From: Rhizobiaceae bacterium
Lineage (GTDB): Bacteria; Pseudomonadota; Alphaproteobacteria; Rhizobiales; Rhizobiaceae
Assembly (NCBI GenBank): GCA_020628775.1
Contig: JAHDEP010000003.1
Span: 1 to 46,229, forward strand
Direction: 5' to 3'
DNA length: 46,229 nt
This document shows, in pieces, positions 19,958 to 33,890 of the stretch. A model generated the notes under the pieces. The model was not told where the DNA came from and did not search any database. It saw only the letters and a list, made by a program, of their open reading frames with translations. Position 1 is the stretch's first letter, and each line of letters opens with the position of its first letter. The position numbers and the translations under genes are program-made.

Positions 19958-20233
19958 ATGACAAGTGATCATTCAGAAACACTTGTGCAGCTTGGCCATG
20001 CACGCAAGATTTTGCAATCTCAATTAACGCACGCTGAGTTTGACGACAAACTTACAGATAGTTCGATAAACACAATCTCTCTCATCGTAAGGACGCTTGA
20101 GAAGATTGATCAATTGTCGCGCGCTCTTTTAAAGGACCAAAAAACAGCCGATGAGGAGTTGTCAGAAGAAGACTTTGAAAAGCTCAAAGAAAAAGTTGAA
20201 CACCTCCTCAAACAAGCAAGTCAGAGCCGATAA
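19958..20233 (+). CDS. Probable GTA small terminase (g1)
   Basis: 91-aa helical protein (ISLIVRTLEKIDQL) immediately upstream of and overlapping the large terminase. Confidence 0.65.
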   Translation: MTSDHSETLVQLGHARKILQSQLTHAEFDDKLTDSSINTISLIVRTLEKIDQLSRALLKDQKTADEELSEEDFEKLKEKVEHLLKQASQSR

Positions 20234-21536
20234 TTCTAAATATCGGGATTTCAAATCCTTTTTAAAAAGCTTGTCTTTGAACGAATTAAAAGCGCTAAGC
20301 CGTGATTGGCAATTATCTGCACGGCGAGAGCAATTACCTCCCATTGGTCAGTGGTTTACCTGGTTAATATTGGGCGGAAGGGGTGCTGGCAAAACCCGGG
20401 CCGGGGCAGAATGGGTGCATGATGCTTCAAGCTCCGGCCATTTGATGGATAAGGTATCAGGCAGAAAACTAGTTTATGGCCGCATTGCGCTGGTGGCTGA
20501 AACATTAAGCGACGCACGTGAGGTGATGGTGGATGGTCAAAGCGGTATCCTGAATATCGCAAAGCGTAATCGTCCAGTTTATGAAAGTTCGCGTCGACGT
20601 TTGATTTGGCCAAATGGAGCCATTGCGCAGATCTTTTCATCGGAAGATCCTGAGAGTTTACGGGGACCACAATTTGATTTGGCCTGGTGTGATGAGCTGT
20701 GCAAATGGAAATATGCGCAGGAAACTTGGGACATGCTGCAATTTGGATTGCGGCTAGGTTCGCAACCCCGGCAATTGATCACAACCACGCCGCGCCCGAT
20801 TGAATTGTTAAAACAGATTATGGAAGATCCATTGACGGTGATAACAAAAATGCGCACCGACGATAATAAGGCGCATTTGGCCAAGAGCTTTTTGCATAAT
20901 GTAAATGCGCGATATGCTGATACAAGATTGGGACGTCAGGAGCTTGATGGCGAGGTTATATCTGACCTTGAAAACGCACTGTGGCAACGTGAAATGCTTG
21001 AAAAAATACGCTTGCCGCAATTGCCTGATCTTCAGCGGATTGTGGTGGCAATTGATCCACCTGTATCGGCGACTGCGAAAAACTCCTGCTGCGGGATTGT
21101 TGTTGCGGGTCTTGATGCAAAAGGTTCGGGGATTGTTTTGGAAGATGGTTCTATTGATGGTGCAAGTCCAAGCAAATGGGCTGCGCGCGCGGTGGAATTA
21201 TTCCATAGATATGAAGCGGATATGGTGGTGGCAGAAGGTAATCAGGGCGGAGATATGGTGCGCTCGGTGCTGCAGGCAAGTGATGCGACCCTACCGATCC
21301 AAATTGTCCATGCAACGCGTGGCAAATGGCTGCGCGCTGAACCGGTTGCTGCGCTTTATGAGCAAAATAGGGTCAAGCATTTAGGTGCATTTAAAAAGCT
21401 TGAGGATCAGATGTGTAATTTCTCAAACACAAATGGTTCAAATGCAATTTCTCCAGATAGGCTCGATGCGCTTGTATGGGCGTTAACGGCATTGATGCTT
21501 GATCAATCTGGTGCGCCTGCAATTCGTGCTGTTTAG
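20151..21536 (+). CDS. GTA large terminase (g2)
   Basis: GGRGAGKTRAGAEW Walker A, LRGPQFDLAWCDE Walker B, VVAIDPP, SPDRLDALVWA. Start uncertain. Confidence 0.95.
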   Translation: MRSCQKKTLKSSKKKLNTSSNKQVRADNSKYRDFKSFLKSLSLNELKALSRDWQLSARREQLPPIGQWFTWLILGGRGAGKTRAGAEWVHDASSSGHLMDKVSGRKLVYGRIALVAETLSDAREVMVDGQSGILNIAKRNRPVYESSRRRLIWPNGAIAQIFSSEDPESLRGPQFDLAWCDELCKWKYAQETWDMLQFGLRLGSQPRQLITTTPRPIELLKQIMEDPLTVITKMRTDDNKAHLAKSFLHNVNARYADTRLGRQELDGEVISDLENALWQREMLEKIRLPQLPDLQRIVVAIDPPVSATAKNSCCGIVVAGLDAKGSGIVLEDGSIDGASPSKWAARAVELFHRYEADMVVAEGNQGGDMVRSVLQASDATLPIQIVHATRGKWLRAEPVAALYEQNRVKHLGAFKKLEDQMCNFSNTNGSNAISPDRLDALVWALTALMLDQSGAPAIRAV

Positions 21537-21589
21537 TCGGCAGTTTTTTTAAATTCTATATCGAATAAGATGTTAAAAAGGATCACTCT

Positions 21590-22801
21590 ATGAGTTGGTT
21601 TACAAACCTTCGTGGCATGATGAAAGCTAATCATGAGGCTCAGGAAAATGGGTCGAATGATGTCGATCTGTCGCAAAAAACAGCACCCGCAAACGGCTAT
21701 ATTTCATTGCATGAAACGGGATTAGCCAATTGGTCATCTCGCAATTATCTATCAATGTCCCGCGAAGGTTTCATGAAAAATCCAATTGCGCACCGCGCCA
21801 TTAGAATGATTTCTGAAACGGCAGCAAATGTGCCCTGGACTTTGTTTGAAAACGAGACAGAACTTTCAGATCATCCGGCGCTTAAACTCCTTCAAAAACC
21901 CAATAATGTATCCGGAGCTGCAGATTTTCTAGAAGGGCTTTATGGCCACTTGCTTCTATCAGGAAATGCCTTTGTGAAAGTTTTGACAGATGGCGAAACT
22001 CCGCTTGAGTTACATGCGCTCAGGCCAGACCGAATTCGCGTTATTTCGGGGCGAGACGGATGGCCGGAAGCCTTTGAATATCAAGTGAGTAATCATAAAG
22101 AACGGTTTGAACTTAATACTAATTCAAAGCCTCAGATCCTGCATTTGAAATTGTTTCACCCATTGGATGATCATATGGGGTTTGCACCACTTGAAGCCGC
22201 TTTGATGGCGCTAGATTTGCACAATTCTGCAAGCGGATGGAATAAAGCCTTGCTTGATAATTCCGCTCGCCCTTCAGGTGCATTGGTTTATCAGCCAAAA
22301 GACGGCGGCAATCTAACACAAGATCAGTTTGACCGGTTAAAGGGTGAACTTGAAGAAGGATATTCCGGTGTACAAAAAGCCGGCAAGCCGCTGCTTTTGG
22401 AAGGTGGGCTCGATTGGAAAGCCATTGGGTTAACACCAAAGGATATGGATTTTGTCGAAGCTAAAAATGGTGCCAGTCGTGATATCGCATTGGCGCTCGG
22501 GGTTCCGCCTATGTTGCTTGGTATTCCTGGCGACAATACCTATGCCAATTATCAAGAAGCCAATCGTGCTTTTTCACGCTTAACCGTTTTGCCGTTGGTT
22601 ATGCGTATTGCCGCCAGCATGAGCACTTACTTGCAAAATTTTTATGGTGGTGAATTTCGCTTTGAACCCGATATTGATAAAATGCCGGGGCTTTCATCTG
22701 AGCGCGATATGCTTTGGGCAAGGCTTGAAAACACGACATTCTTGACCGACCAAGAAAAGCGGAAAGCCGTTGGTTATCAATCTGTTGCTGGCGACGAATG
22801 A
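21590..22801 (+). CDS. GTA portal protein, HK97 family (g3)
   Basis: LHALRPDR, WNKALLDNSARPSGAL, GVPPMLLGIPGDNTYANYQEANR. Confidence 0.96.
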   Translation: MSWFTNLRGMMKANHEAQENGSNDVDLSQKTAPANGYISLHETGLANWSSRNYLSMSREGFMKNPIAHRAIRMISETAANVPWTLFENETELSDHPALKLLQKPNNVSGAADFLEGLYGHLLLSGNAFVKVLTDGETPLELHALRPDRIRVISGRDGWPEAFEYQVSNHKERFELNTNSKPQILHLKLFHPLDDHMGFAPLEAALMALDLHNSASGWNKALLDNSARPSGALVYQPKDGGNLTQDQFDRLKGELEEGYSGVQKAGKPLLLEGGLDWKAIGLTPKDMDFVEAKNGASRDIALALGVPPMLLGIPGDNTYANYQEANRAFSRLTVLPLVMRIAASMSTYLQNFYGGEFRFEPDIDKMPGLSSERDMLWARLENTTFLTDQEKRKAVGYQSVAGDE

Positions 22802-22880
22802 GTTCCCTGTAACTTAAAAACACAAATCAAATCAATTTAAAAACAAGTATTACGCAAATCAAAAAGGTTCAGCGGAAAGC

Positions 22881-23402
22881 ATGAAACACGCCAATATTTT
22901 ACTTTCTGATGCCAAAGATGATGGCTTTATTTCCGGTTATGCCAGCCTGTTTGATATCGCAGATTTATCCAATGATGTGATCGAAAAAGGCGCGTTTAAA
23001 AACTCTATTGCAAGCCATAAAGCAAGCCGCATCAAACTCTTATTCCAGCATGATCCGAACCAACCTATTGGTCATTGGGTCAAAATCGTTGAGGACAAAA
23101 AAGGGCTGTATGTCGAAGGTAAATTGACCTTGGGTAATGCGAAGGCAAAAGACATTCACGCGCTCATTTTATCCGGTGCCATTGAGGGTCTCTCAATCGG
23201 CTTTAAAACAAAGCGTTCGCGCAAAGACCCAAAAACCGGGGCACGCCACATTATTGAAGCTGAGCTATGGGAAATATCCATCGTAACGTTTCCGATGCTC
23301 CCTGCTGCACGCATCGATGTGGCCAAGGGCCTGCCATCGCCACCTTCAAGTTTTGATAATCGAATGGCCCAAGTGATCCGCAATGCCGTTGCGCGGTTTT
23401 AA
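22881..23402 (+). CDS. GTA prohead protease, HK97 family (g4)
   Basis: GYASLF..LLFQHDP..PIG.W..GLSIGF..LWEISIVTFPM. Confidence 0.95.
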   Translation: MKHANILLSDAKDDGFISGYASLFDIADLSNDVIEKGAFKNSIASHKASRIKLLFQHDPNQPIGHWVKIVEDKKGLYVEGKLTLGNAKAKDIHALILSGAIEGLSIGFKTKRSRKDPKTGARHIIEAELWEISIVTFPMLPAARIDVAKGLPSPPSSFDNRMAQVIRNAVARF

Positions 23403-23454
23403 CCGCAAGTAATTTCTCAAACCAACATCAGTTCATCTTTTGAAAGGAACTATA

Positions 23455-24762
23455 ATGACGATTGCAAACCGTAAGCGTGCTGCTGAGGATAAGCAGCTGG
23501 AGAAGAAAGTGCGCCCGCCGCAGAATTTGGAAACCAAAACCGTTGAGACTAAATCGACCGGTAATGAAGTTGCCAATGCCTTTGAAGATTTCATGCGCGC
23601 GTTTGAAAGTTATAAGGAAACCAACGATGAGCGTTTGGCCCAGGTTGAACAACGTATTGGCACTGACGTTGTAACCACGGAAAAAATGGACCGCATTTCC
23701 CGATCCATGGATGAACAAAAGCGTAAGCTTGATCAGTTGATGGTAAAGGGCTCACGCCCTGTATTGGGTGATCAATCATTTGATTTTTCAGACAATGAGC
23801 ACAAGAACGCATTTAATGCTTATATCCGTCGCGGCGATGAAATGGGTCTGCGTCTTGTCGAACAAAAAGCGCTGTCGCAATCAAGTGATCCTGATGGTGG
23901 CTATCTGGTGCCGGATGAACTTGATCAACAAATTGGACGTCGTCTATCAGACTTATCACCAATTCGCAGCATTTCATCGGTGCGCCAAGTCACGGGTTCG
24001 GTGTTGAAGAAACCATTTTCTCAAAATGGTATGGCTGTAGGCTGGGTGGGCGAAACTGATGCTCGCCCGCAAACAACCACAGCGCAATTGGTGGAGCTGC
24101 AGTTCCCCACTATGGAACTTTATGCCATGCCAGCTGCAACGTCATCTCTTCTAGAAGATAGTGCGATTGATATCGATACCTGGATTATGAGCGAGGTTGA
24201 AGCAGCCTTTGCAGAACAAGAAGGATCAGCATTTGTAAATGGCGATGGTGTGAACAAACCAACAGGTTTCCTAAACGCCCCGCAAGTGGATGATGCAAGT
24301 TGGAGCTGGGGTAATCTTGGTTATATCGCAACAGGTACCGATGCAGGATTTGGCGATGATCCGTCTGACAGACTAATTGAAACAATTTATTCGCTCAAAT
24401 CCGGATATCGTCAGAATGCAAAATTTGTGATGAACCGCAAGACGCAAGGAACCATTCGCCAGTTTAAAGACGCAGATGGGAACTATATGTGGCAGCCACC
24501 TGCAGCACCCGGCCAGCAAGCTATGCTGCACGGATTTCCCGTCGTAGAAGCTGAAGATATGCCAGATATTGCAACGGATACAATGTCAGTCGCATTCGGT
24601 GATTTCGAGCGCGGCTATCTTGTTGTTGATCGCCAGGGTGTTTCGGTCTTGCGTGATCCGTATTCGGCCAAACCTTATGTGTTGTTTTACACCACAAAAC
24701 GTGTCGGCGGCGGCGTACAAAATTATGAAGCATTAAAGCTCATCAAATTTGGCACCGCATAA
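23455..24762 (+). CDS. GTA major capsid protein (g5)
   Basis: DGGYLVP, ELYAMPAAT..LLED, FVNGDGVNKP.GFL, RDPYSAKPYVLFYTTKRVGGGV; AAGGA RBS before ATG 23455. Confidence 0.97.
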   Translation: MTIANRKRAAEDKQLEKKVRPPQNLETKTVETKSTGNEVANAFEDFMRAFESYKETNDERLAQVEQRIGTDVVTTEKMDRISRSMDEQKRKLDQLMVKGSRPVLGDQSFDFSDNEHKNAFNAYIRRGDEMGLRLVEQKALSQSSDPDGGYLVPDELDQQIGRRLSDLSPIRSISSVRQVTGSVLKKPFSQNGMAVGWVGETDARPQTTTAQLVELQFPTMELYAMPAATSSLLEDSAIDIDTWIMSEVEAAFAEQEGSAFVNGDGVNKPTGFLNAPQVDDASWSWGNLGYIATGTDAGFGDDPSDRLIETIYSLKSGYRQNAKFVMNRKTQGTIRQFKDADGNYMWQPPAAPGQQAMLHGFPVVEAEDMPDIATDTMSVAFGDFERGYLVVDRQGVSVLRDPYSAKPYVLFYTTKRVGGGVQNYEALKLIKFGTA

Positions 24763-24784
24763 ATAGCTTTCAAAAACTGAAATC

Positions 24785-24818
24785 AACCCCTGCTGAATGA
24801 TCATTTGGCAGGGGTTTT
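24785..24818 (+). terminator. Intrinsic terminator after the capsid gene
   Basis: AACCCCTGC-tgaatgatcatttg-GCAGGGGTT followed by TT; the inner arm extends the stem with G-U pairs. Confidence 0.75.
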
Positions 24819-24862
24819 ATCACTCAATTTTTCTTCCAAACACTTTTGCAAATAGGTATTTG

Positions 24863-25429
24863 ATGACGCTCGTTTTATCTCAATCACCCGAAACGGAACC
24901 GGTTACGCTTGAAGACGTAAAAGCGCATTTGCGCCTTGATCATGAAAGTGAGGATGAGCTTTTAAATTCGTTAATCGCCGCAGCCCGCGAGTATCTAGAG
25001 CAACAAACTCAATTGGCGCTCATGACGCAAATCTGGCGATTGTGCTTAGATAGCTGGCCAATTGATAAATGCGTAAAACTGTATAAATCGCCGGTGCAAT
25101 CGATCGATCAAATTGAACAATTTGATGCAAGTGGCATAGGGTCACAAATCTCGACCAGCGAAATGCTGCTTGATAGCAACGCGCATCCCGCGCGCCTTTA
25201 CATCAATGCGCAATCTGCCCCTGAACAAGTGATCAATGGAATTGAAATCACGTTTACTGCAGGCTTTCAAAGTGCAAGCGAAGTGCCTGATATGCTAAAG
25301 CGGGCTTTGCTTATTCATATCGCACAAATGTATGAATTTCGCGGTGTGGTGTCTGCTAATATGCAGCCCGCCGCTGTGCCTCAAGGTTATCTCGCATTAA
25401 TTAGCCCATGGGTTCGGAGATCAATCTGA
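24863..25429 (+). CDS. GTA head-tail connector/adaptor (g6)
   Basis: EPVTLEDVKAHLRLD..ED.LL..LI.AAR..TQ.W..VP..LK.A.L; start moved to ATG 24863. Confidence 0.9.
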   Translation: MTLVLSQSPETEPVTLEDVKAHLRLDHESEDELLNSLIAAAREYLEQQTQLALMTQIWRLCLDSWPIDKCVKLYKSPVQSIDQIEQFDASGIGSQISTSEMLLDSNAHPARLYINAQSAPEQVINGIEITFTAGFQSASEVPDMLKRALLIHIAQMYEFRGVVSANMQPAAVPQGYLALISPWVRRSI

Positions 25430-25764
25430 TGGAACTCCAGTTTTTTGACCCAGGCTTGCTGCGCATCCCAATTGAGCTGCAAACATGTCAACTAATCCCA
25501 GATGGACAGGGTGGCGCTGATGAAGCATGGATTGGCGTTGCAGAACTTTTTGCGCATATCGCACCGATGAATTCTTCGCTCCGTACCCGTGCTCAATATG
25601 ATGATCAGATCATCACACACGGCATTACGATCAGGTATCGCGAAGACATCAGTTTAGATCAAAGGTTTTTAAGAAATGCGCGCGTCTTCGCCATTCGCGG
25701 TTTTTATGATCTGGATGAAACTAAACGATATCTCATCTGCAAATGCGAGGAAATTTCATCGTGA
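25429..25764 (+). CDS. GTA head closure/stopper protein (g7)
   Basis: DPGLLR..PDGQGG..W..THGITIRYR..RYLICKCEE; TGATG overlap. Confidence 0.87.
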   Translation: MELQFFDPGLLRIPIELQTCQLIPDGQGGADEAWIGVAELFAHIAPMNSSLRTRAQYDDQIITHGITIRYREDISLDQRFLRNARVFAIRGFYDLDETKRYLICKCEEISS

Positions 25765-25803
25765 ATATTTATGCAGACATCCTGGAAAACGTGAGGTGTT
25801 AAG

Positions 25804-26208
25804 ATGGGGCATTCAACTTCTCATTTACAAAAAGCTATCTTTGAAACATTGAACGAAAACGCTGCATTAAAAGCGCTAATTGGTGAAGACAAAGTGTTGA
25901 GCCATGTGAGGTTAAAGACAGATTTTCCCTATATTGTGATTTGCAATTGGCAAACAGAAGACTGGTCAACATCCACCGATAAAGGTGAGTTACATCGGTT
26001 TGATATCGATGTCTGGGATGATAATCCATCAACGCTATCGCAGCAGAATATTGCCTCCAAAATCATTGAATTGCTGCATGATCAACCGTTGGAGTTGGTC
26101 CTTGGAAACCTTGTTAACCTTCGTTTTGAAAACTCAGTTCACAACACGCAAGGTAGTAAAAAATTGCAACCATTGAGTTTAAAATTTCGCGCCACTATCG
26201 AATTTTAA
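25804..26208 (+). CDS. GTA tail terminator, DUF3168 (g8)
   Basis: LQKAIF..FPY..DWSTSTDKGELH..VW..LVNLRF. Confidence 0.87.
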   Translation: MGHSTSHLQKAIFETLNENAALKALIGEDKVLSHVRLKTDFPYIVICNWQTEDWSTSTDKGELHRFDIDVWDDNPSTLSQQNIASKIIELLHDQPLELVLGNLVNLRFENSVHNTQGSKKLQPLSLKFRATIEF

Positions 26209-26234
26209 ACTACCAAATTGGAAAGGTAATAATT

Positions 26235-26642
26235 ATGGCAGCTCAAAAGGGAAAAGATCTTTTGATCAAGGTTGACCAAGATGGAACATTCATCACGGTT
26301 GCAGGTCTACGCGCGAAGAGATTGGCATTTAATGCCGAAACGGTTGATATCACGGATGCTGAATCAAGCGGTCGTTGGCGGGAATTGCTCGAAGGTGCCG
26401 GCGTGCAACGTGCAAGCATATCGGGTTCCGGGATATTTAAAGATGCGGACAGTGACGAATTGGTTCGCTCTGCATTTTTTAATGGAAACATCAAAAATTG
26501 GGAAATCACAATTCCAGATTTTGGGGTGGTTACAGGGTTATTCCAACTCACATCACTTGAATATTCCGGACAGCATAATGGTGAAATATCATTTGAAGCT
26601 GCAATGGAATCTGCTGGTCTATTAAGCTTTGGGGCGGTGTAA
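26235..26642 (+). CDS. GTA major tail tube protein, TP901-1 family (g9)
   Basis: MAAQKGKDLLIK..AGLR..FNAETVDIT..GRWRELL..IPDFG. Confidence 0.95.
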   Translation: MAAQKGKDLLIKVDQDGTFITVAGLRAKRLAFNAETVDITDAESSGRWRELLEGAGVQRASISGSGIFKDADSDELVRSAFFNGNIKNWEITIPDFGVVTGLFQLTSLEYSGQHNGEISFEAAMESAGLLSFGAV

Positions 26643-27058
26643 TGAACAAAATCACCCCAGTAGGCGAAGCTGCGCAGAAGACGGCTTCCAGTGTTTTACC
26701 CAACCGAAGGCGTGGCGAGGTTTTAATCACGATCGATAATACCCCTCGCATCATGTGTTTAACGCTCGGCGCTCTTACCGAGCTTGAGGATGCCTTTCAT
26801 GTTGATAATCTTTCAGAACTTGGCACATATTTTTCAAATGGAAAATTTAGCGCCGATGATCTTGTTCATATCATCGGGGCAGGGCTTCGAGGCGGTGGTA
26901 ATCTTTATACAGATGAAGATATCAGAAGCCTCAGCATCGAAGGCGGTGCAGTCGGTCTTGCACAAGTTGCAGCTGAGTTGTTGAAGATTACATTTTCCAG
27001 CGGGCATAATGAGGAAAATGAGCAATTTGAAGAGCACAAAAAATCTGAAAAAAAGTAG
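26642..27058 (+). CDS. GTA tail assembly chaperone (g10)
   Basis: NRRRGEV..CLTLGAL.ELE..IIGAGLRGGG; ends GAA AAA AAG TAG. Confidence 0.9.
   Translation: MNKITPVGEAAQKTASSVLPNRRRGEVLITIDNTPRIMCLTLGALTELEDAFHVDNLSELGTYFSNGKFSADDLVHIIGAGLRGGGNLYTDEDIRSLSIEGGAVGLAQVAAELLKITFSSGHNEENEQFEEHKKSEKK
27049..27055 (+). other. Putative -1 programmed ribosomal frameshift site (A AAA AAG)
   Basis: In-frame X-XXY-YYZ heptamer directly before the g10 stop; the -1 frame opens here (TGA at 27046-27048 closes it upstream). Confidence 0.78.
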
Positions 27059-27324
27059 GTCGCGCAGCTGAACACAAAAAAATAACAATAAGTCAAAATC
27101 CGGGATCAGCCCCTTATAGAAATGATAAGTTTCCATGGGACCAGCTACTCGGATTTGCCCTTGTTCGGTTGCGATTATCACCTGGTGAGTTTTGGGGCTT
27201 GTCATTGCCCGAACTAACCGCTGCCATCACTTATTTAAGTCCCGGTAAATCCTCACAAACCTCGTCCATGAAGCACGATGATTTGCATGTTCTTATGACC
27301 CGATATCCCGATCTTAAAACTTAA
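27049..27324 (+). CDS. GTA g10.1-like tail chaperone C-terminal segment, in the -1 frame of g10
   Basis: Not in ORF track. Translates KKVGRAAEHKKITISQNPGSAPYRNDKFPWDQLLGFALVRLRLSPGEFWGLSLPEL..DLHVLMTRYPDLKT*; FPW..LRL.P..FW..EL..LM..YPD is the g10.1 pattern. No ATG/GTG/TTG before FPW. Confidence 0.85.
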   Translation, partial: KKVGRAAEHKKITISQNPGSAPYRNDKFPWDQLLGFALVRLRLSPGEFWGLSLPELTAAITYLSPGKSSQTSSMKHDDLHVLMTRYPDLKT

Positions 27325-27352
27325 GCAGTTCGTACCCTTGAAAGTGATCAAT

Positions 27353-27943
27353 ATGGTTGCAGATAACATACCTGTAGAGATTTCGATCTCCGGTAATTTT
27401 GACGAAATATCAAGTGAATTATCCCAACTTGAAATCCAAGCAGATCAGTTTGGCAAAGCAATGACGAGCGCGCTTAAAAGTTCGATCCTTGATGGTGAAA
27501 GTTTTTCACAAGTTCTCAACAATCTCGCCCTGTCGCTCTCTGATATGGCGTTAAATGCTGCATTGGCACCAATTGAAACAGGTATCAGCAATCTGTTCAG
27601 TTCCGTATTGGGTGGTGGATCATTATTTGCAGGTACCAATGCCTTGCCGACCAATCTCATCCCTTTTGCAAATGGTGGTGTCGTTTCATCGCCGACATTG
27701 TTTCCCATGGGCGGTTCAGGTTCGAATGTCGGGCTTATGGGGGAAGCTGGTTCGGAAGCAATTTTGCCTCTAGCACGCGGCGCGGATGGGAGTTTGGGTG
27801 TTGCAACATCAGGTTCACAATCACCACCTGTCAACATCTCATTTAATATCAACACCCCAGATGCCGATGGATTTAAACGCTCAGAAACACAAATCTCTAC
27901 CATGCTCGCGCGTGCTGTGGGGCGAGGGCAACGCGGTCTTTAA
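27353..27943 (+). CDS. GTA tail tape measure protein (g11)
   Basis: ~196 aa; PFANGGVVSSPT.FPM..GLMGEAGSEAILPL.RG.DG.LGV..F.RSE.Q..RGQR. Confidence 0.92.
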   Translation: MVADNIPVEISISGNFDEISSELSQLEIQADQFGKAMTSALKSSILDGESFSQVLNNLALSLSDMALNAALAPIETGISNLFSSVLGGGSLFAGTNALPTNLIPFANGGVVSSPTLFPMGGSGSNVGLMGEAGSEAILPLARGADGSLGVATSGSQSPPVNISFNINTPDADGFKRSETQISTMLARAVGRGQRGL

Positions 27944-27999
27944 TGGCTTTCAACAGTTAAAAAACTTCAAGGTGAATATATGAGAAATAGGAGTTTTGC

Positions 28000-28644
28000 A
28001 TGACATCTGGTTTTCACGAGGTTTCGTTCCCCATGTCATTAGCGCTTGGAACCACCGGTGGCCCGGAACGCCGGAACGATATCGTTTTGTTGTCCAATGG
28101 ATATGAAAGCCGAAATGCGCGCTGGCGGGATTCAAGGCGCCGCTATGATGCCGGGTCAGGGATGAAAAGTGCCCGAGATTTATATGAGCTCATTTCGTTT
28201 TTCGAAGCGCGTTGCGGCAACTTATATGGCTTTCGCTTTAAAGATCCGCTCGATCATTTATCCAGTGCATATGGCGAAGATATTTCCGCAACTGACCAGC
28301 AATTAGGCGTAGGTGATGGCGTTACATCTCTCTTTCAGTTGAGCAAAAGTTACGCTGATATCGGTGGATCATCATCGCGCAATATTCAAAAACCGGTGAA
28401 TGGCTCAGTCCGCATTGCTTTGGATGGGGTTGAAGTATTCTCGCCGGAATTTGACGTAAATACTCAGACCGGTCTTGTCTCATTTAACGAACCGCCCACT
28501 CAAGATGTTGTCTTAACCGCAGGGTTTGAGTTTGATGTGCCTGTTAGATTTGATTTAGAGCGTTTGGATATCAATTTATCAAATTTTCACGCCGGCCATA
28601 TTCCTTCTATCCCATTAATTGAAATCAAGACCGAGGATGGGTGA
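28000..28644 (+). CDS. GTA distal tail protein, DUF2460 (g12)
   Basis: FHEVSFP..GGPERR..FFEAR.G..GFRFKDP.D..TAGFEFDVPVRFD. Confidence 0.93.
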   Translation: MTSGFHEVSFPMSLALGTTGGPERRNDIVLLSNGYESRNARWRDSRRRYDAGSGMKSARDLYELISFFEARCGNLYGFRFKDPLDHLSSAYGEDISATDQQLGVGDGVTSLFQLSKSYADIGGSSSRNIQKPVNGSVRIALDGVEVFSPEFDVNTQTGLVSFNEPPTQDVVLTAGFEFDVPVRFDLERLDINLSNFHAGHIPSIPLIEIKTEDG

Positions 28645-29534
28645 TGAAAGAGATTAGCGATGACTTTTCCAGCCAGCTTGAAAACCAGTCCAAGACACTT
28701 TGTAATGCTTGGCGGTTAACGCGTAATGACGGCTTGATTTTTGGTTTTACCGATCATGATCATGCTCTTAACTTTGGTGGAACAGATTTTCTCCCCAATA
28801 GTGGTTTTCTGCCAAGTGCTGTGCGGTCAGAACTTGGCCTTAACGTAGATGAAAGCGAAGTTGCGGGCGCATTTGTAAACGATGCTGTGACAGAAAAAGA
28901 TCTGCGCGATGGTCGTTATGATAATGCAATCATCGAAGTTTATCTGGTGGATTGGAGCTCACCCGATAAGGCTATAAAATTACGCACACAAGAAATTGGT
29001 GAAGTGAGTTTTTCAGATCATCAGTTTCGTGCAGAACTTCGCTCAATAACGCATCGGCTAAACCAGCCCCAAGGACGTGGTTATTGTAAAAAATGTACGG
29101 CTGATTTGGGTGATGATGCCTGCGGCGTTATTCTTGATGACCAGCTATTTAGTGCCACAGGAACCATTGTTTCAGCTTCAAGTGAACAGAGCGCGATTGT
29201 CTCTGGACTGGATGGTTTTGAAGCTTCGTGGTTTCGATTTGGCTTAATCACATGGACGAGCGGTGAAAATGCAAATCTCTCAGTTGAGATTTATGATCAT
29301 GAAAACTCAGAGGGTGATGTGACGCTGAAGTTTTTCGCTCCATTACCTAATCTCCCTCAGGCAGGAGATAGTTTTAAGATCACTGCAGGTTGCGCTAAAA
29401 CATTCTCTGTTTGTGGCGACAAATTTTCAAACACACTGAATTTTCAGGGGTTCCCACACATGCCTGGGCGAGATTTTGCTTATGGATATGCAGATGAGGA
29501 AACCGTCCATGATGGCAGTCCGCTCGTAGATTGA
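28641..29534 (+). CDS. GTA baseplate hub protein, DUF2163 (g13)
   Basis: W.LTR.DG..GFTDHD..C.ADLGD..C..GC.K....C..KF.N..NF.GFPHMPG. Confidence 0.93.
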   Translation: MMKEISDDFSSQLENQSKTLCNAWRLTRNDGLIFGFTDHDHALNFGGTDFLPNSGFLPSAVRSELGLNVDESEVAGAFVNDAVTEKDLRDGRYDNAIIEVYLVDWSSPDKAIKLRTQEIGEVSFSDHQFRAELRSITHRLNQPQGRGYCKKCTADLGDDACGVILDDQLFSATGTIVSASSEQSAIVSGLDGFEASWFRFGLITWTSGENANLSVEIYDHENSEGDVTLKFFAPLPNLPQAGDSFKITAGCAKTFSVCGDKFSNTLNFQGFPHMPGRDFAYGYADEETVHDGSPLVD

Positions 29535-29554
29535 ACCTGAAATTTATGTAATTT

Positions 29555-30007
29555 TTGGAGAGCATTTTGTCCGATGTAAATGTACGCATTGTCCAACTGG
29601 CAAGCGAATGGATTGGTACGCCTTATCGTCACCAAGGGTATCAAAAGCATATTGGCTGTGATTGCTTGGGTTTGATCCGCGGAATTTGGCACGAGCTCTA
29701 CGGCATTAAGCCAGATAATCCGCAACCCTATGCAATGGACTGGGCGGAAGCTTCAAAAGAGGAGCGGATGCTGGACGCAGCGCGCGCATATTGCGGACCG
29801 GAAATTGCCCTTGAAAACATGGAAGCAGGCTGTTTAATCCTTTTTCGTTGGCGCCAAAGTGCATCAATCAAGCATGCGGGCATATTATCCGCGCCACATC
29901 AATTTATTCATGCATATGAGCGCATTGGCGTCACGCAATCTGCGTTAGTGCCTTCGTGGCGTAGGCGCATTGCCGCTGTTTTTAAGTTTCCCAATATTTC
30001 ACAATAG
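29555..30007 (+). CDS. GTA NlpC/P60 cell-wall peptidase (g14)
   Basis: WIGTPYRHQ..GCDCLGLIRGIW..KHAGI..FIHAY..WRRRI; TTG start. Confidence 0.93.
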   Translation: MESILSDVNVRIVQLASEWIGTPYRHQGYQKHIGCDCLGLIRGIWHELYGIKPDNPQPYAMDWAEASKEERMLDAARAYCGPEIALENMEAGCLILFRWRQSASIKHAGILSAPHQFIHAYERIGVTQSALVPSWRRRIAAVFKFPNISQ

Positions 30008-30026
30008 TTTTCCTTCGGAGGGGCGT

Positions 30027-33000
30027 ATGGCCACTATCTTATTGCAAGCGGCAGGGTCGGCAATTGGCGGTTTATTGGGACCGCTTGGTGGCGTTATTGG
30101 TGGCGCGGCTGGTGCGCTTGTGGGGAACGTGATTGATCAGGCAATATTTGGCCAAAAAACTATCTCCACGCCGGGACTTGAAGGTGCACGTATTGCCTCG
30201 CCCGATGAAGGTAGCCCAATCGCGCGCGTTTATGGGACGATGCGTATTGCAGGGAATTTGATATGGGCAACGCGCTTTGAAGAGGAAATCACAACCGAAC
30301 GACAAGGTGGCAAAGCTACAAGTGGCACATCTGTTGAGACGCGCAACTATTATGCAAATTTCGCGCTCGGTTTATGTGAGGGTGAAATCAATCAGATCAA
30401 ACGTATTTGGGCAGATGGCAAAGAAATTGATCTCAGCCAAATAGAATATCGCCTTTATAAAGGCAGTCCTGATCAGCTTCCCGATCCGCTCATTGAAGCC
30501 AAGCAAGGGGAGGGTAAAACGCCCGCATATCGAGGCCTCGCTTATATTGTTTTCGATCATTTCCCTATTGATAGCTATGGCAATCGCATTCCAATTCTGC
30601 ATTTCGAAGTCACCAAAGTTATCTCGCAGCTTGAAAGTAAAATTGAAGCTGTAACCTTAATCCCCGGTGCAACTGAGCACGGATTATCAAATGTGCAGGT
30701 AAGTGAAACGCCCAATATCGGCGAGCAAAATTTGCTCAATCGGCATATTAGTTTTGCAACTTGTGATCTTGAGGCTGCGCTTGATGAATTACAAAATCTC
30801 TGTCCCAATCTTAAATCAATCGGTCTTGTCGTTTCATGGTTTGGTTCTGATTTACGCGCAGATCATTGTCTTTTTGCGCCGAAGGTTGAAGTCAGCGAAC
30901 GCATTGGTGAAACGCGGATCTGGTCCGTGGGTTCAAAAACGCGCAACACGACGGAGCTCGTCTCCAGCACGAATGATGTTCTTAATTTTGGTGGCACGCC
31001 AGATGATCAATCGGTGATTGACGCGGTTACCGCAATTAAATCACGTGGTCTTAATGTGACGCTTTACCCATTTATATTAATGGATATTCCCAGCGATAAT
31101 ACACTGCCTTCTCCTTATGGGGATGAAACGCAAGCCGCGTTTCCCTGGCGTGGTCGTATCACTTGTAATCCAGCCATCGGTGAAACTGGAACCGTTGATC
31201 AAACCCAAACAGCTGCGAACCAGATAAGCACGTTGATGGGTATCAGCGAGGTTGGTGATTTTGCAATAAATGGCACATCGGTCACGTGGACGGGTGGAGA
31301 CCAAGGCTACCGGCACATGCTGTTACATTATGCACATTTAGCCAAAGCCTCAGCCGATAACGGTTATCCAATCGATGGTTTTGTCATAGGGTCAGAAATG
31401 GTCGCTTTGACACGTGTTCGAGATGATCAAAATAATTTCCCCTTCGTGTCTGCGCTGTGTGAGCTTGCAGAGGATATTTATGGCATCATTGGTGATCATA
31501 CAAAGCTAACTTACGCTGCAGATTGGTCTGAATATTTCGGATATCACCCCCAGGATGGATCAAGTGATGTCTATTTTCACCTTGATGAATTATGGGCAAA
31601 TTCGGCAATTCATGCGGTTGGAATTGATAATTATATGCCGCTCTCAGATTGGCGTGATGAAGACATGATGGCTGCAAATCCTGATGGATTTCGTACCCAA
31701 AATGATGAGGCCGCGCTCAAAACTCAAATCACCTCTGGGGAAGGGTTTGATTATTATTATCAAAGCACTGAAGACCGCAAAGAGCGCATTCGAACACCCA
31801 TTAGTGATGGCTTAAACAAACCATGGGTCTTTCGTTATAAAGATCTAAGATCGTGGTGGGAGAACCAACATTATAATCGCGTAAACGGTGTTGAACAATC
31901 AACACCAACTGGATGGGTGCCTCAATCAAAACCCATTTGGCTCACTGAGTTTGGCTGTCCGGCAGTTGATAAGGGGGCAAACCAGCCAAATGTATTTCCT
32001 GACCCCAAATCGTCGGAAAATGCACTGCCATATTATTCCAGCAATGCGCGTGATGATCAGGCCCAAAGGTCCTATCTTTCTGCGCATATTGATCATTGGT
32101 CTTCAGATGAAAACCCCGTCGGCATGGTGGATCTTGAAAATTCCTATATCTGGACTTGGGACGCACGCCCGTTTCCCGCTTTTCCCGCTAATACCAGCGT
32201 TTGGACAGATGGCGAGAACTGGCGAAATGGTCACTGGATAAATGGTCGGTTAGGAAATGCGCCTCTTCGTGAGTTGATCTCAGCGATTTTAACCGATCAT
32301 GGGTTTGAAGCGTTCGATGTAGATCTTGTTGAGGGAACATTACAAGGTTATGTGCAAGCTGAATTTACCTCCGCGAGAGCATTGCTTGAAAGCTTGTTGG
32401 CGCTGTTTTTAATCGATGTTTATGAAAGTGAGGATAAGTTAGTTTTCACTTCACGGCTTAAATCTTCGAAATCGCCAACGCTTATCGATGCCGTGATTGA
32501 TCAAACTGATGAACCTTTTGTACGCCATAGCCGCGGGCAGGAGAGCGAATTGGCAAATGAAGTGCAAATTACCCATCTTGCGCCAATGTCAGATTATCAA
32601 CCATCAACAGTATATTCCAGGCGTTTAAGTCGCGGGAGCCAACGGCAAGAAAATTTAACATTGCCTGGATCCGTTGATCACGACACAGTGGCAAATCTTG
32701 CGGATCAGTGGTTACAAAACCATTGGGCCAGTCGTGAAACCATCGAGTTTCAACTCCCAATGGGAGAGATTGCGCTAGAAGTGGGTGATCGTGTTCAGTT
32801 TGATCAAGAATGTGCGTTCAACCCGCCACCAGGAACATATTCGATTGTTCAAATTGAGGATGGATTTCAACGTCAAATTACAGCAGCGCGCATGGTTGCT
32901 TCAAACAATCTGATCCAAGACAATGACGCGCAGAGTAATCAGATACTAGATGTGAGCGCAGGATTTAATCCCAATGTGATCCTGCTCGATCTACCGATTT

Positions 33001-33890
33001 TGTCCGGTAGTAGCGCAAGTGATTGGGCGCGGGCTGCAGCTTATGCAAAACCTTGGGTGCCAATCATTTTATCCAGCTCAACTGGTGATGATGGATATGA
33101 ACAACGAACAACGCTCACTGTCCCCGCCTATATCGGAACTCTCGCTGCAGATTTAACTGCAGGGCCCGAGGGTCGGTTTGATTATGCAAATCAAATCATA
33201 GTTGATCTGCCTTATGGTGCGTTTGAGACAATCGAATTATCAAAGCTGCTCGCAGGCGGAAATGTCCTTGCAATCAGATCAGAAAATGATGCTTGGGAAA
33301 TAATCCAGTTCCAAACAGCTTTAGAAATCGCAACAAATCAATGGCAATTATCCACGCTATTACGTGCGCAAGCTGGAACGGAAGATGCGATGAATGCAGG
33401 TGCGTTATCAGGTGCTGATGTTGTGCTCATCAATGATAATGTCCTGGCTTTGGGGTTAAACTCATCTGAGCTGGATGCTGAACTTAATTGGCAGATAACC
33501 GGCATTGGTAAACCAAGCGATCATCTTGAAACTATAGCCTTCTCCGGTGGCGTACGCGCTCATACACCATTATCACCTGTGCATTTACGGGCGGTGCGAA
33601 ACGCTAACAATATCGAACTGAGTTGGACAAGGCGCGGGCGTATCTCCGCAGATAATTGGACAGGTGCAGAAATCCCCGAGGATGAAGATCAATCGCAGTT
33701 TCTGATTAAGATTTTCAACGGCACGCAGACAATCCATGAAGCGATTTCAGATACATTATCCTACGTCTATGAAGGTGATCAACAGCTCGCAGACTTTGGC
33801 GAATATCCGTCAAATGTTGTATTTTCTGTTCAGCAAATCGGTGGTCAAATCGCCCAAGGTATCTCCAGAACAGCTACGATTTCGCTGTGA
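30027..33890 (+). CDS. GTA baseplate multidomain 'megatron' protein (g15)
   Basis: MATILL.AAG, PAYRGLAY, AYAADWSEY-like YAADWSEYFG, GIDNYMPLSDWRD, SKPIWLTEFGCPAVDKG.NQPNVF.DPKSSE; start moved to ATG 30027 after GGAGG. Confidence 0.95.
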   Translation: MATILLQAAGSAIGGLLGPLGGVIGGAAGALVGNVIDQAIFGQKTISTPGLEGARIASPDEGSPIARVYGTMRIAGNLIWATRFEEEITTERQGGKATSGTSVETRNYYANFALGLCEGEINQIKRIWADGKEIDLSQIEYRLYKGSPDQLPDPLIEAKQGEGKTPAYRGLAYIVFDHFPIDSYGNRIPILHFEVTKVISQLESKIEAVTLIPGATEHGLSNVQVSETPNIGEQNLLNRHISFATCDLEAALDELQNLCPNLKSIGLVVSWFGSDLRADHCLFAPKVEVSERIGETRIWSVGSKTRNTTELVSSTNDVLNFGGTPDDQSVIDAVTAIKSRGLNVTLYPFILMDIPSDNTLPSPYGDETQAAFPWRGRITCNPAIGETGTVDQTQTAANQISTLMGISEVGDFAINGTSVTWTGGDQGYRHMLLHYAHLAKASADNGYPIDGFVIGSEMVALTRVRDDQNNFPFVSALCELAEDIYGIIGDHTKLTYAADWSEYFGYHPQDGSSDVYFHLDELWANSAIHAVGIDNYMPLSDWRDEDMMAANPDGFRTQNDEAALKTQITSGEGFDYYYQSTEDRKERIRTPISDGLNKPWVFRYKDLRSWWENQHYNRVNGVEQSTPTGWVPQSKPIWLTEFGCPAVDKGANQPNVFPDPKSSENALPYYSSNARDDQAQRSYLSAHIDHWSSDENPVGMVDLENSYIWTWDARPFPAFPANTSVWTDGENWRNGHWINGRLGNAPLRELISAILTDHGFEAFDVDLVEGTLQGYVQAEFTSARALLESLLALFLIDVYESEDKLVFTSRLKSSKSPTLIDAVIDQTDEPFVRHSRGQESELANEVQITHLAPMSDYQPSTVYSRRLSRGSQRQENLTLPGSVDHDTVANLADQWLQNHWASRETIEFQLPMGEIALEVGDRVQFDQECAFNPPPGTYSIVQIEDGFQRQITAARMVASNNLIQDNDAQSNQILDVSAGFNPNVILLDLPILSGSSASDWARAAAYAKPWVPIILSSSTGDDGYEQRTTLTVPAYIGTLAADLTAGPEGRFDYANQIIVDLPYGAFETIELSKLLAGGNVLAIRSENDAWEIIQFQTALEIATNQWQLSTLLRAQAGTEDAMNAGALSGADVVLINDNVLALGLNSSELDAELNWQITGIGKPSDHLETIAFSGGVRAHTPLSPVHLRAVRNANNIELSWTRRGRISADNWTGAEIPEDEDQSQFLIKIFNGTQTIHEAISDTLSYVYEGDQQLADFGEYPSNVVFSVQQIGGQIAQGISRTATISL

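Follow-up and report, generated by a model that had tools for sequence, protein, structure and literature searches.

The tail chaperone frames g10 and g10.1 in the GTA cluster of a marine Rhizobiaceae bacterium very probably form a lambda G/GT-type pair, joined by programmed −1 frameshifting at the end of g10. This reading of the sequence is based on the layout of the two frames, the lack of a standard start codon for g10.1, a conserved slippery heptamer in the register of g10, and a covarying stem at a fixed distance from the heptamer. In the proposed mechanism, a fraction of the ribosomes would slip by −1 at the heptamer and make a 227-aa g10–g10.1 fusion beside the 138-aa g10, the two lysine tRNAs presumably re-pairing one base back while the ribosome stalls at the stem.

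The window, i.e., the whole stretch of 46,229 nucleotides that was analysed (GenBank assembly GCA_020628775.1, contig JAHDEP010000003.1), holds a complete RcGTA-like head–tail cluster at 19958–33890 (~14 kb; Pfam, PHROG and TIGR/NF family matches), with terminase, portal, protease, capsid and neck genes, the tail tube gene g9, g10, g10.1, the short tape measure gene g11, and g12–g15. The g2–g15 homologues, with families matched across this interval, stand in RcGTA order, and the nearest named records are Lentilitoribacter and Rhizobiaceae genomes. The gap between portal and protease genes (22801–22881) is too small to hold a homologue of RcGTA g3.5. g10 and g10.1 lie between the tail tube and tape measure genes, which is the lambda G/GT-type placement; g11 matches NF058675 (RcGTA_tape) with E 6e-47, yet its 160 bits are under the cut-off of 220. 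The features referred to below are as follows.

26235..26642, + strand: g9, tail tube protein (PF06199, E 1.2e-45; TIGR02126), predicted partner of the g10.1 domain
26642..27058, + strand: g10, tail assembly chaperone, G equivalent, 138 aa (PF11836, E 1.8e-22)
27046..27048, + strand: TGA that shuts the −1 frame directly 5′ of the heptamer (from the sequence); changed to TAA, likewise a stop, in two other runs
27049..27055, + strand: slippery heptamer A_AAA_AAG in the g10 register (from the sequence and genus comparison)
27056..27058, + strand: g10 stop codon, adjoining the heptamer; TAG in the window, TAA in two of four runs
27049..27324, + strand: −1 frame, made up of a linker and, from 27130 on, the g10.1 core; T equivalent (PF09550; TIGR02216)
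27063..27074, + strand: 5′ arm of the predicted long-range stimulatory stem, after a 7-nt spacer behind the heptamer; register conserved in the family
27096..27156, + strand: predicted inner helix, 27096–27104 with 27148–27156, enclosing the start of the g10.1 core (MFE and centroid)
27162..27173, + strand: 3′ arm of the predicted stem, falling on V-R-L-R codons of g10.1
27338..27943, + strand: g11, short tape measure protein, 201 aa (NF058675 RcGTA_tape; PHROG tape-measure matches)

The end of g10 and the −1 frame

The last codons of g10 read GAA AAA AAG TAG and contain the heptamer in register. The −1 frame is shut by the preceding TGA, opens exactly at 27049 and runs for 91 codons to the TAA at 27322–27324; it matches PF09550 with E 4.4e-13, starting at residue 28 (Pfam), and TIGR02216 (the rcc01693 family) with E 1.1e-8, under the family cut-off. 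Its earliest ATG, GTG or TTG is the TTG at 27169, 13 codons into the conserved core, and the recomputed lengths of the predicted products are 138 aa for g10 and 138+89 = 227 aa for the fusion. All of this is in agreement with an earlier note made from these letters alone, which had described the in-register heptamer, the −1 frame closed immediately before it and ending at 27324, a linker free of standard starts, the g10.1 identity of that frame, and products of 138 and about 227 aa.

By crude gene calls, an in-register A_AAA_AAG occurs within the last 15 codons of 9 of the 2722 genes in the same genome, and g10 is the single gene of the 2722 in which it stands immediately before the stop. The −1 frame remains open for more than 60 codons in two of the nine, g10 and a transposase-like ORF. 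L221 (G000:C192), an ORF of this genome that ends in an A9G run and whose 332-codon −1 frame weakly matches a DDE transposase (below the cut-off), is likely a recoded insertion sequence. Nine tRNA genes were found in the draft genome, none of them for Lys; a tRNA-Lys reading AAG would damp slippage.

The earlier note had raised the concern that the split is a homopolymer error and the true gene one fused frame. A-runs are error-prone, and one genus locus resembles a one-base loss in the same run: L033 (G004:C128) has A6G and an intact stem (8/10 pairs) that are out of register, with a start-less g10.1 in the +1 frame, and looks like the product of an assembly error or a damaged allele. However, contigs of four runs from four studies, one of them possibly the source of the window, have no indel at the junction and an unchanged heptamer; none of 177 loci examined carries an in-frame g10–g10.1 fusion; and the −1 layout recurs in relatives that have other heptamers. 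At the sequence level, these contigs and relatives refute the error reading, the probability of which is negligible. A weak, single-sequence search of longer proteins likewise returned no natural in-frame fusion. Two fused candidates among four longer proteins from a profile search (P0003 and P0004) were rejected, being single-contig and frame-garbled.

The variants among the four runs, TAG to TAA at the g10 stop and TGA to TAA upstream of the heptamer, leave both stem arms untouched. The run itself is A7 in the window and A8 in two other runs, which would suit a fusion made by RNA polymerase slippage on the A-run with addition of a base, a process known for A-runs in bacterial genes. The genus relatives, however, have only A6, and most of the family carries A_AAC_CCY, which lacks a long run, in the same place with respect to the stem; we therefore regard polymerase slippage as very unlikely and retain slippage of the ribosome as the preferred reading.

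With respect to the proteins, the g10 model (pLDDT 90.8) has as its top PDB match the HK97 tail assembly chaperone 2OB9, with a middling Z of 5.1, an rmsd of 3.7 Å and 79 aligned residues (48161 chains), and its best match among viral models is a tail assembly chaperone (E 1.3e-3). g10.1 is predicted as a small helical domain (pLDDT 81), for which a fold search against viral structures gave nothing under E 0.3. The predicted complex of g9 and g10.1 scored 0.33, compared with 0.00 for the best control, with contact agreement of at least 73% and a partner pLDDT of 51–54; 116 of 157 solved pairs reached a mark of this kind, as did 2 of 215 mismatched ones, neither of the latter with a score above 0.60. 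The model thus gives a hint that g9 may bind the g10.1 domain. By analogy with lambda, the short tape measure would be coated by g10, and the fusion, as the rarer product, would recruit the tail tube protein g9 via its g10.1 domain.

A predicted long-range stem behind the heptamer

The earlier note had seen no clear 3′ stimulatory hairpin, and our analysis does not lend support to this. Folding of 27049–27190 predicts a strong structure (MFE −39.6 kcal/mol, z −3.35; 0/200 shuffles as good), in which 27063–27074 pairs with 27162–27173 at probabilities of 0.75–1.0 in four folding windows; by eye, helices resembling the inner helix occur in other genus members. Pairing begins at the 8th base after the heptamer at the locus and at the 6th in most family members. 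Five Rfam matches were obtained for the locus, all far under the gathering score, so that no family was assigned, and no RNA holder is listed for the stretch.

The stem was compared across 54 family and genus loci, selected by frame and heptamer (strict or N_NNC_CCY), with the register anchored on the heptamer end and the FPW motif; at L091 the heptamer was shifted one codon by hand. In register, 88% of the cells are paired, as against 28–56% in slid registers, and at least 8 of 10 pairs are formed in 44 of the 54 loci, the other 10 having fewer. Pairing amounts to 88.9% versus 81.5% in shuffled sets, and 22 cells are changed on both sides versus 3.9 in shuffles, none of 500 shuffles being as high, but since the register was spotted by eye in the same data, in protein-coding arms and among related loci, these shuffle counts are not probabilities. 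Mapped on the tree, the double changes fall on a pair in 36 of 45 cases, compared with 38 of 89 in six slid registers. Judged from these comparisons, the 3′ stem is a conserved and covarying predicted element. Its position tracks the heptamer and not the g10 stop: in the 15 loci where the heptamer lies 3–24 nt before the stop, at least 8/10 predicted pairs are found in 13 with the register anchored on the heptamer and in none with it anchored on the stop.

Six loci of one well-supported clade have lost the distant arm and have a local hairpin of −26 to −33 kcal/mol at the same spot, and two of the ten poorly paired loci (L079, L105) have no good substitute structure. Outside the family, the fixed long-range register was encountered only at single loci (L012, L038 and L203), and the other start-less loci there have local hairpins, a different stem, or no evident structure. 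The different stem belongs to family f61 (L043, L156–L158 and L160), in which another predicted long-range pairing stands behind C_CCT_TTR heptamers (z −1.3 to −4.8); an ATG or GTG overlaps in four of these five loci, possibly an intermediate state.

Many family members may in addition use an internal Shine–Dalgarno (SD)-like site upstream of the heptamer. Such a site is present 4–22 nt upstream in 32 of the 54 loci (59%), compared with 21% of 1604 windows from g10 bodies and 19% of 52 start-class loci, and it is absent from the window locus (−2.1 kcal/mol). The family spacings of stem and SD-like site agree with the ranges given in the available text of PMC5009743, i.e., 3′ stimulators beginning 6–9 nt downstream and SD sites 9–14 nt upstream.

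g10–g10.1 junctions across relatives

g10 and g10.1 were called with iterated profiles, and 152 loci with GTA context were classed. Left out were duplicate genus loci (L001–L005), an unpublished genome (L073, G259) on which none of the claims depends, second copies or weak hits (L034, L056, L057, L059, L113–L125, L155, L161, L162 and L190), loci with no g10.1 call (L035, L089 and L181), and loci flanked by only one GTA gene or none (L042, L050, L053, L055, L058, L065, L170 and L177). In three of the second-copy loci (L113, L114 and L123), the PF11836 gene is directly followed by a long ORF that we take, by eye, to be like a prohead protease and not g10.1. A locus was called start-less if no ATG, GTG or TTG occurs from 30 nt before the g10 stop up to the g10.1 motif, and a strict heptamer was defined as X_XXY_YYZ. 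Because an ATGA overlap start also places g10.1 in the −1 frame, the −1 relation was rejected as evidence by itself, and the loci were split by start codon.

g10.1 is start-less in 35 of the 152 loci; 34 of these are in the −1 relation and 28 carry a strict heptamer. In the family of the window (f1), a strict heptamer stands in the g10 register at 36 of 60 loci, compared with 5 and 1 in the other registers and with 208 of 2722 genes (7.6%) as genome background, and the commonest form is A_AAC_CCY. Within the genus the heptamer is in register in seven of eight genomes; among the seven other than our own it is A_AAA_AAG in five, A_AAC_CCC in one and out of register in one. The genus appears to have switched from A_AAC_CCY to A_AAA_AAG with the stem retained. 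In 25 held-out loci of the same order, classed by rules fixed beforehand, 12 are start-less, 12/12 are −1, and the heptamers divide 11/0/0 by register. In Shinella sp. PSBB067, a start-less g10.1 goes with A_AAC_CCT and a complete stem.

Other lineages differ. In family f99, which is Rhodobacteraceae-like and was placed with Paracoccus by 69% DNA matches, g10.1 has an ATG or GTG start in 30/30 loci, with a strict heptamer in 2/30, and in the order of genome G101 it has its own start in 22 of 25 loci, the remaining three being start-less and all carrying a heptamer. Taken together, 52 of 55 loci have their own ATG or GTG, and only 2 of those 52 a strict heptamer; the annotation of g10.1 as a separate gene is therefore probably right in these groups, and, given the 30/30 of the Rhodobacteraceae-like loci, the frameshift claim cannot be extended to all GTAs. 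Sphingomonas parapaucimobilis, the sole named Sphingomonadales record looked at, has an ATGA start. As far as sequences can tell, the frameshift arrangement is lineage-specific, found in most of the window's family and apparently replaced by separate starts elsewhere. The earlier proposal that g10.1 is a recoded extension rather than a separate gene hence is supported for the locus and most of its family, and probably does not apply to f99 and the G101 order; the survey of heptamers and −1 overlaps across Alphaproteobacteria that it had suggested gives the same division.

These data also bear on whether g10.1 is instead a separate gene with a non-standard start, reached by re-initiation, with the stem regulating the coupling. 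Candidate starts exist, i.e., two ATA codons in the linker (27082 and 27088) and, in relatives, a TTG within CCT-TGA that overlaps the stop in 28 of 54 family loci, and separate coupled starts are the rule in the 52 of 55 loci of the two other groups. The ATA codons, however, are not conserved within the genus, and an alternative start of any kind is missing from L030; an SD-like site accompanies none of the 28 TTGs; of the 39 loci whose heptamer adjoins the stop, 11 use TAA or TAG, which removes the TTG; and the stem follows the heptamer rather than the stop. We consider a non-standard start quite unlikely. Nor is g10.1 likely to be a silent remnant, with heptamer and stem inherited and the product no longer needed: the residues of its core are invariant or nearly so in 63 aligned sequences, start-less ones included, and in the A+T-richer genus the −1 frame is kept open over linkers of 59–74 nt in which the other frames carry stops, so that we give this reading an extremely low probability. 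A programmed −1 shift thus remains the favoured explanation for the locus.

Not all start-less loci conform to the family pattern, which, like the out-of-register run and stem of L033, speaks against the frameshift reading. Seven of the 35 have no strict heptamer, and 10 of the 35 have a g10 that extends across the FPW motif, within which a Met could serve as the start; several motif-overlapping or heptamer-less loci have no strong 3′ structure (z near 0). The motif-overlap class, in which g10 spans the FPW motif, comprises L007, L009, L036, L040, L051, L103, L199, L200, L207 and L215; in these loci the motif is itself encoded by the heptamer, in many cases C_CCT_TTC, a Met of the motif frequently overlaps with the g10 stop, and most members have no strong 3′ structure. 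In L046, L205 and L210, palindromic or repeated inserts stretch the g10–g10.1 interval to 125–298 nt, and in L205 the heptamer, a hairpin and the open −1 frame survive the insert.

Relation to known systems and evolution

The arrangement resembles that of lambda gpG/gpGT and other long-tailed dsDNA phages (PMC5009743, as excerpted), in which the same two overlapping chaperone frames lie between tube and tape measure genes in a −1 relation, the first with a slippery heptamer close to its end; in the lambda scheme, G binds the tape measure and T the tube. In contrast to lambda, the GTA locus is host-chromosomal with a tape measure protein of 201 aa, the family heptamer is mostly A_AAC_CCY, and in sister lineages the two proteins seem to come from genes with separate starts. 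Furthermore, a covarying long-range stem accompanies the heptamer in the GTA family, often together with an SD-like site; the available portion of PMC5009743 describes neither for lambda. The heptamer of the window is identical to that of the E. coli dnaX and IS3-family cassettes, whose three-part layout and spacings the family shares (PMC5009743, same portion); in the GTA stem, however, the partner arm lies ~50–105 nt away in downstream coding sequence, and the window locus has the predicted 3′ structure and not the SD part. The chaperone cluster in PMC3711429 is HK97-like, and some phages have two unjoined chaperone genes, according to PMC10885494.

RcGTA of Rhodobacter capsulatus (g10 = rcc01692, g10.1 = rcc01693) has the same gene order and families as the window. 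In the sections consulted, g10 and g10.1/g10.5 are named tail chaperones 1 and 2 (PMC11409702), RcGTA g10 and g10.1 are given as two separate ORFs (PMC5026251), and the sole frameshift found in print for RcGTA is the one predicted at rcc01079/rcc01080 (PMC5026251). The contrast with RcGTA drawn here rests on the Rhodobacteraceae-like f99 loci (30/30 ATG/GTG) and not on the R. capsulatus junction itself. The earlier note knew of no demonstration of such a frameshift in GTAs, and no report of one at g10/g10.1 was found in the literature, including the available parts of PMC8601537, PMC9765227, PMC10299305, PMC8718954 and PMC7296036; Xu 2004 and Pell 2013 could list GTA loci. New here, on the strength of the sequences, would be the GTA case, the covarying long-range stimulator and the split of lineages between slippage and separate start.

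In a midpoint-rooted tree of g9, g10 and g12, the root of which is not secure, the start-type loci L008, L023, L078 and L098 nest inside frameshift clades, and frameshift loci with differing heptamers recur in several distant groups. This nesting and scatter fit an ancestral shift that would have been lost many times, and other GTA lineages likely swapped it for an ordinary coupled start. In-register heptamers are also present in five non-canonical, possibly prophage, loci with g10.1 homologues. On balance, we lean towards a history in which alphaproteobacterial GTAs inherited the G/GT shift from phages; Rhizobiaceae would have kept it together with an undescribed covarying stimulator, the far arm of which lies within the g10.1 code, and other lineages, probably including the RcGTA family, would repeatedly have dropped it for a separately started T-domain protein.

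If this is true, GTAs would amount to a natural experiment, showing that a tie between the T domain and G is dispensable and that either slippage or translational coupling can fix the ratio of the chaperones. A frameshift at g10 would also carry the best-known recoding event of phages over to bacterial genes that are inherited vertically. With frameshift and separate-start lineages forming a patchwork, it would become testable whether a covalent G–T link and a low ratio are needed for assembly of a very short tail. A new RNA stimulator with natural compensatory variants would be gained, and the annotation of g10.1, now cut at an internal Met or missed, would be corrected in many Rhizobiaceae and related genomes. 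L195 (MW091529.1, 8051–8613) comes from a record that was submitted as a sewage bacteriophage; its genes follow the GTA order, it carries A_AAC_CCT-TGA and a stem with 9/10 pairs, and the annotated g10.1 starts at an internal ATG and leaves out the FPW motif. In Paracoccus ferrooxidans (L192; CP038202.1, after 145373), g10.1 has an ATGA-type start and a frame break within the gene.
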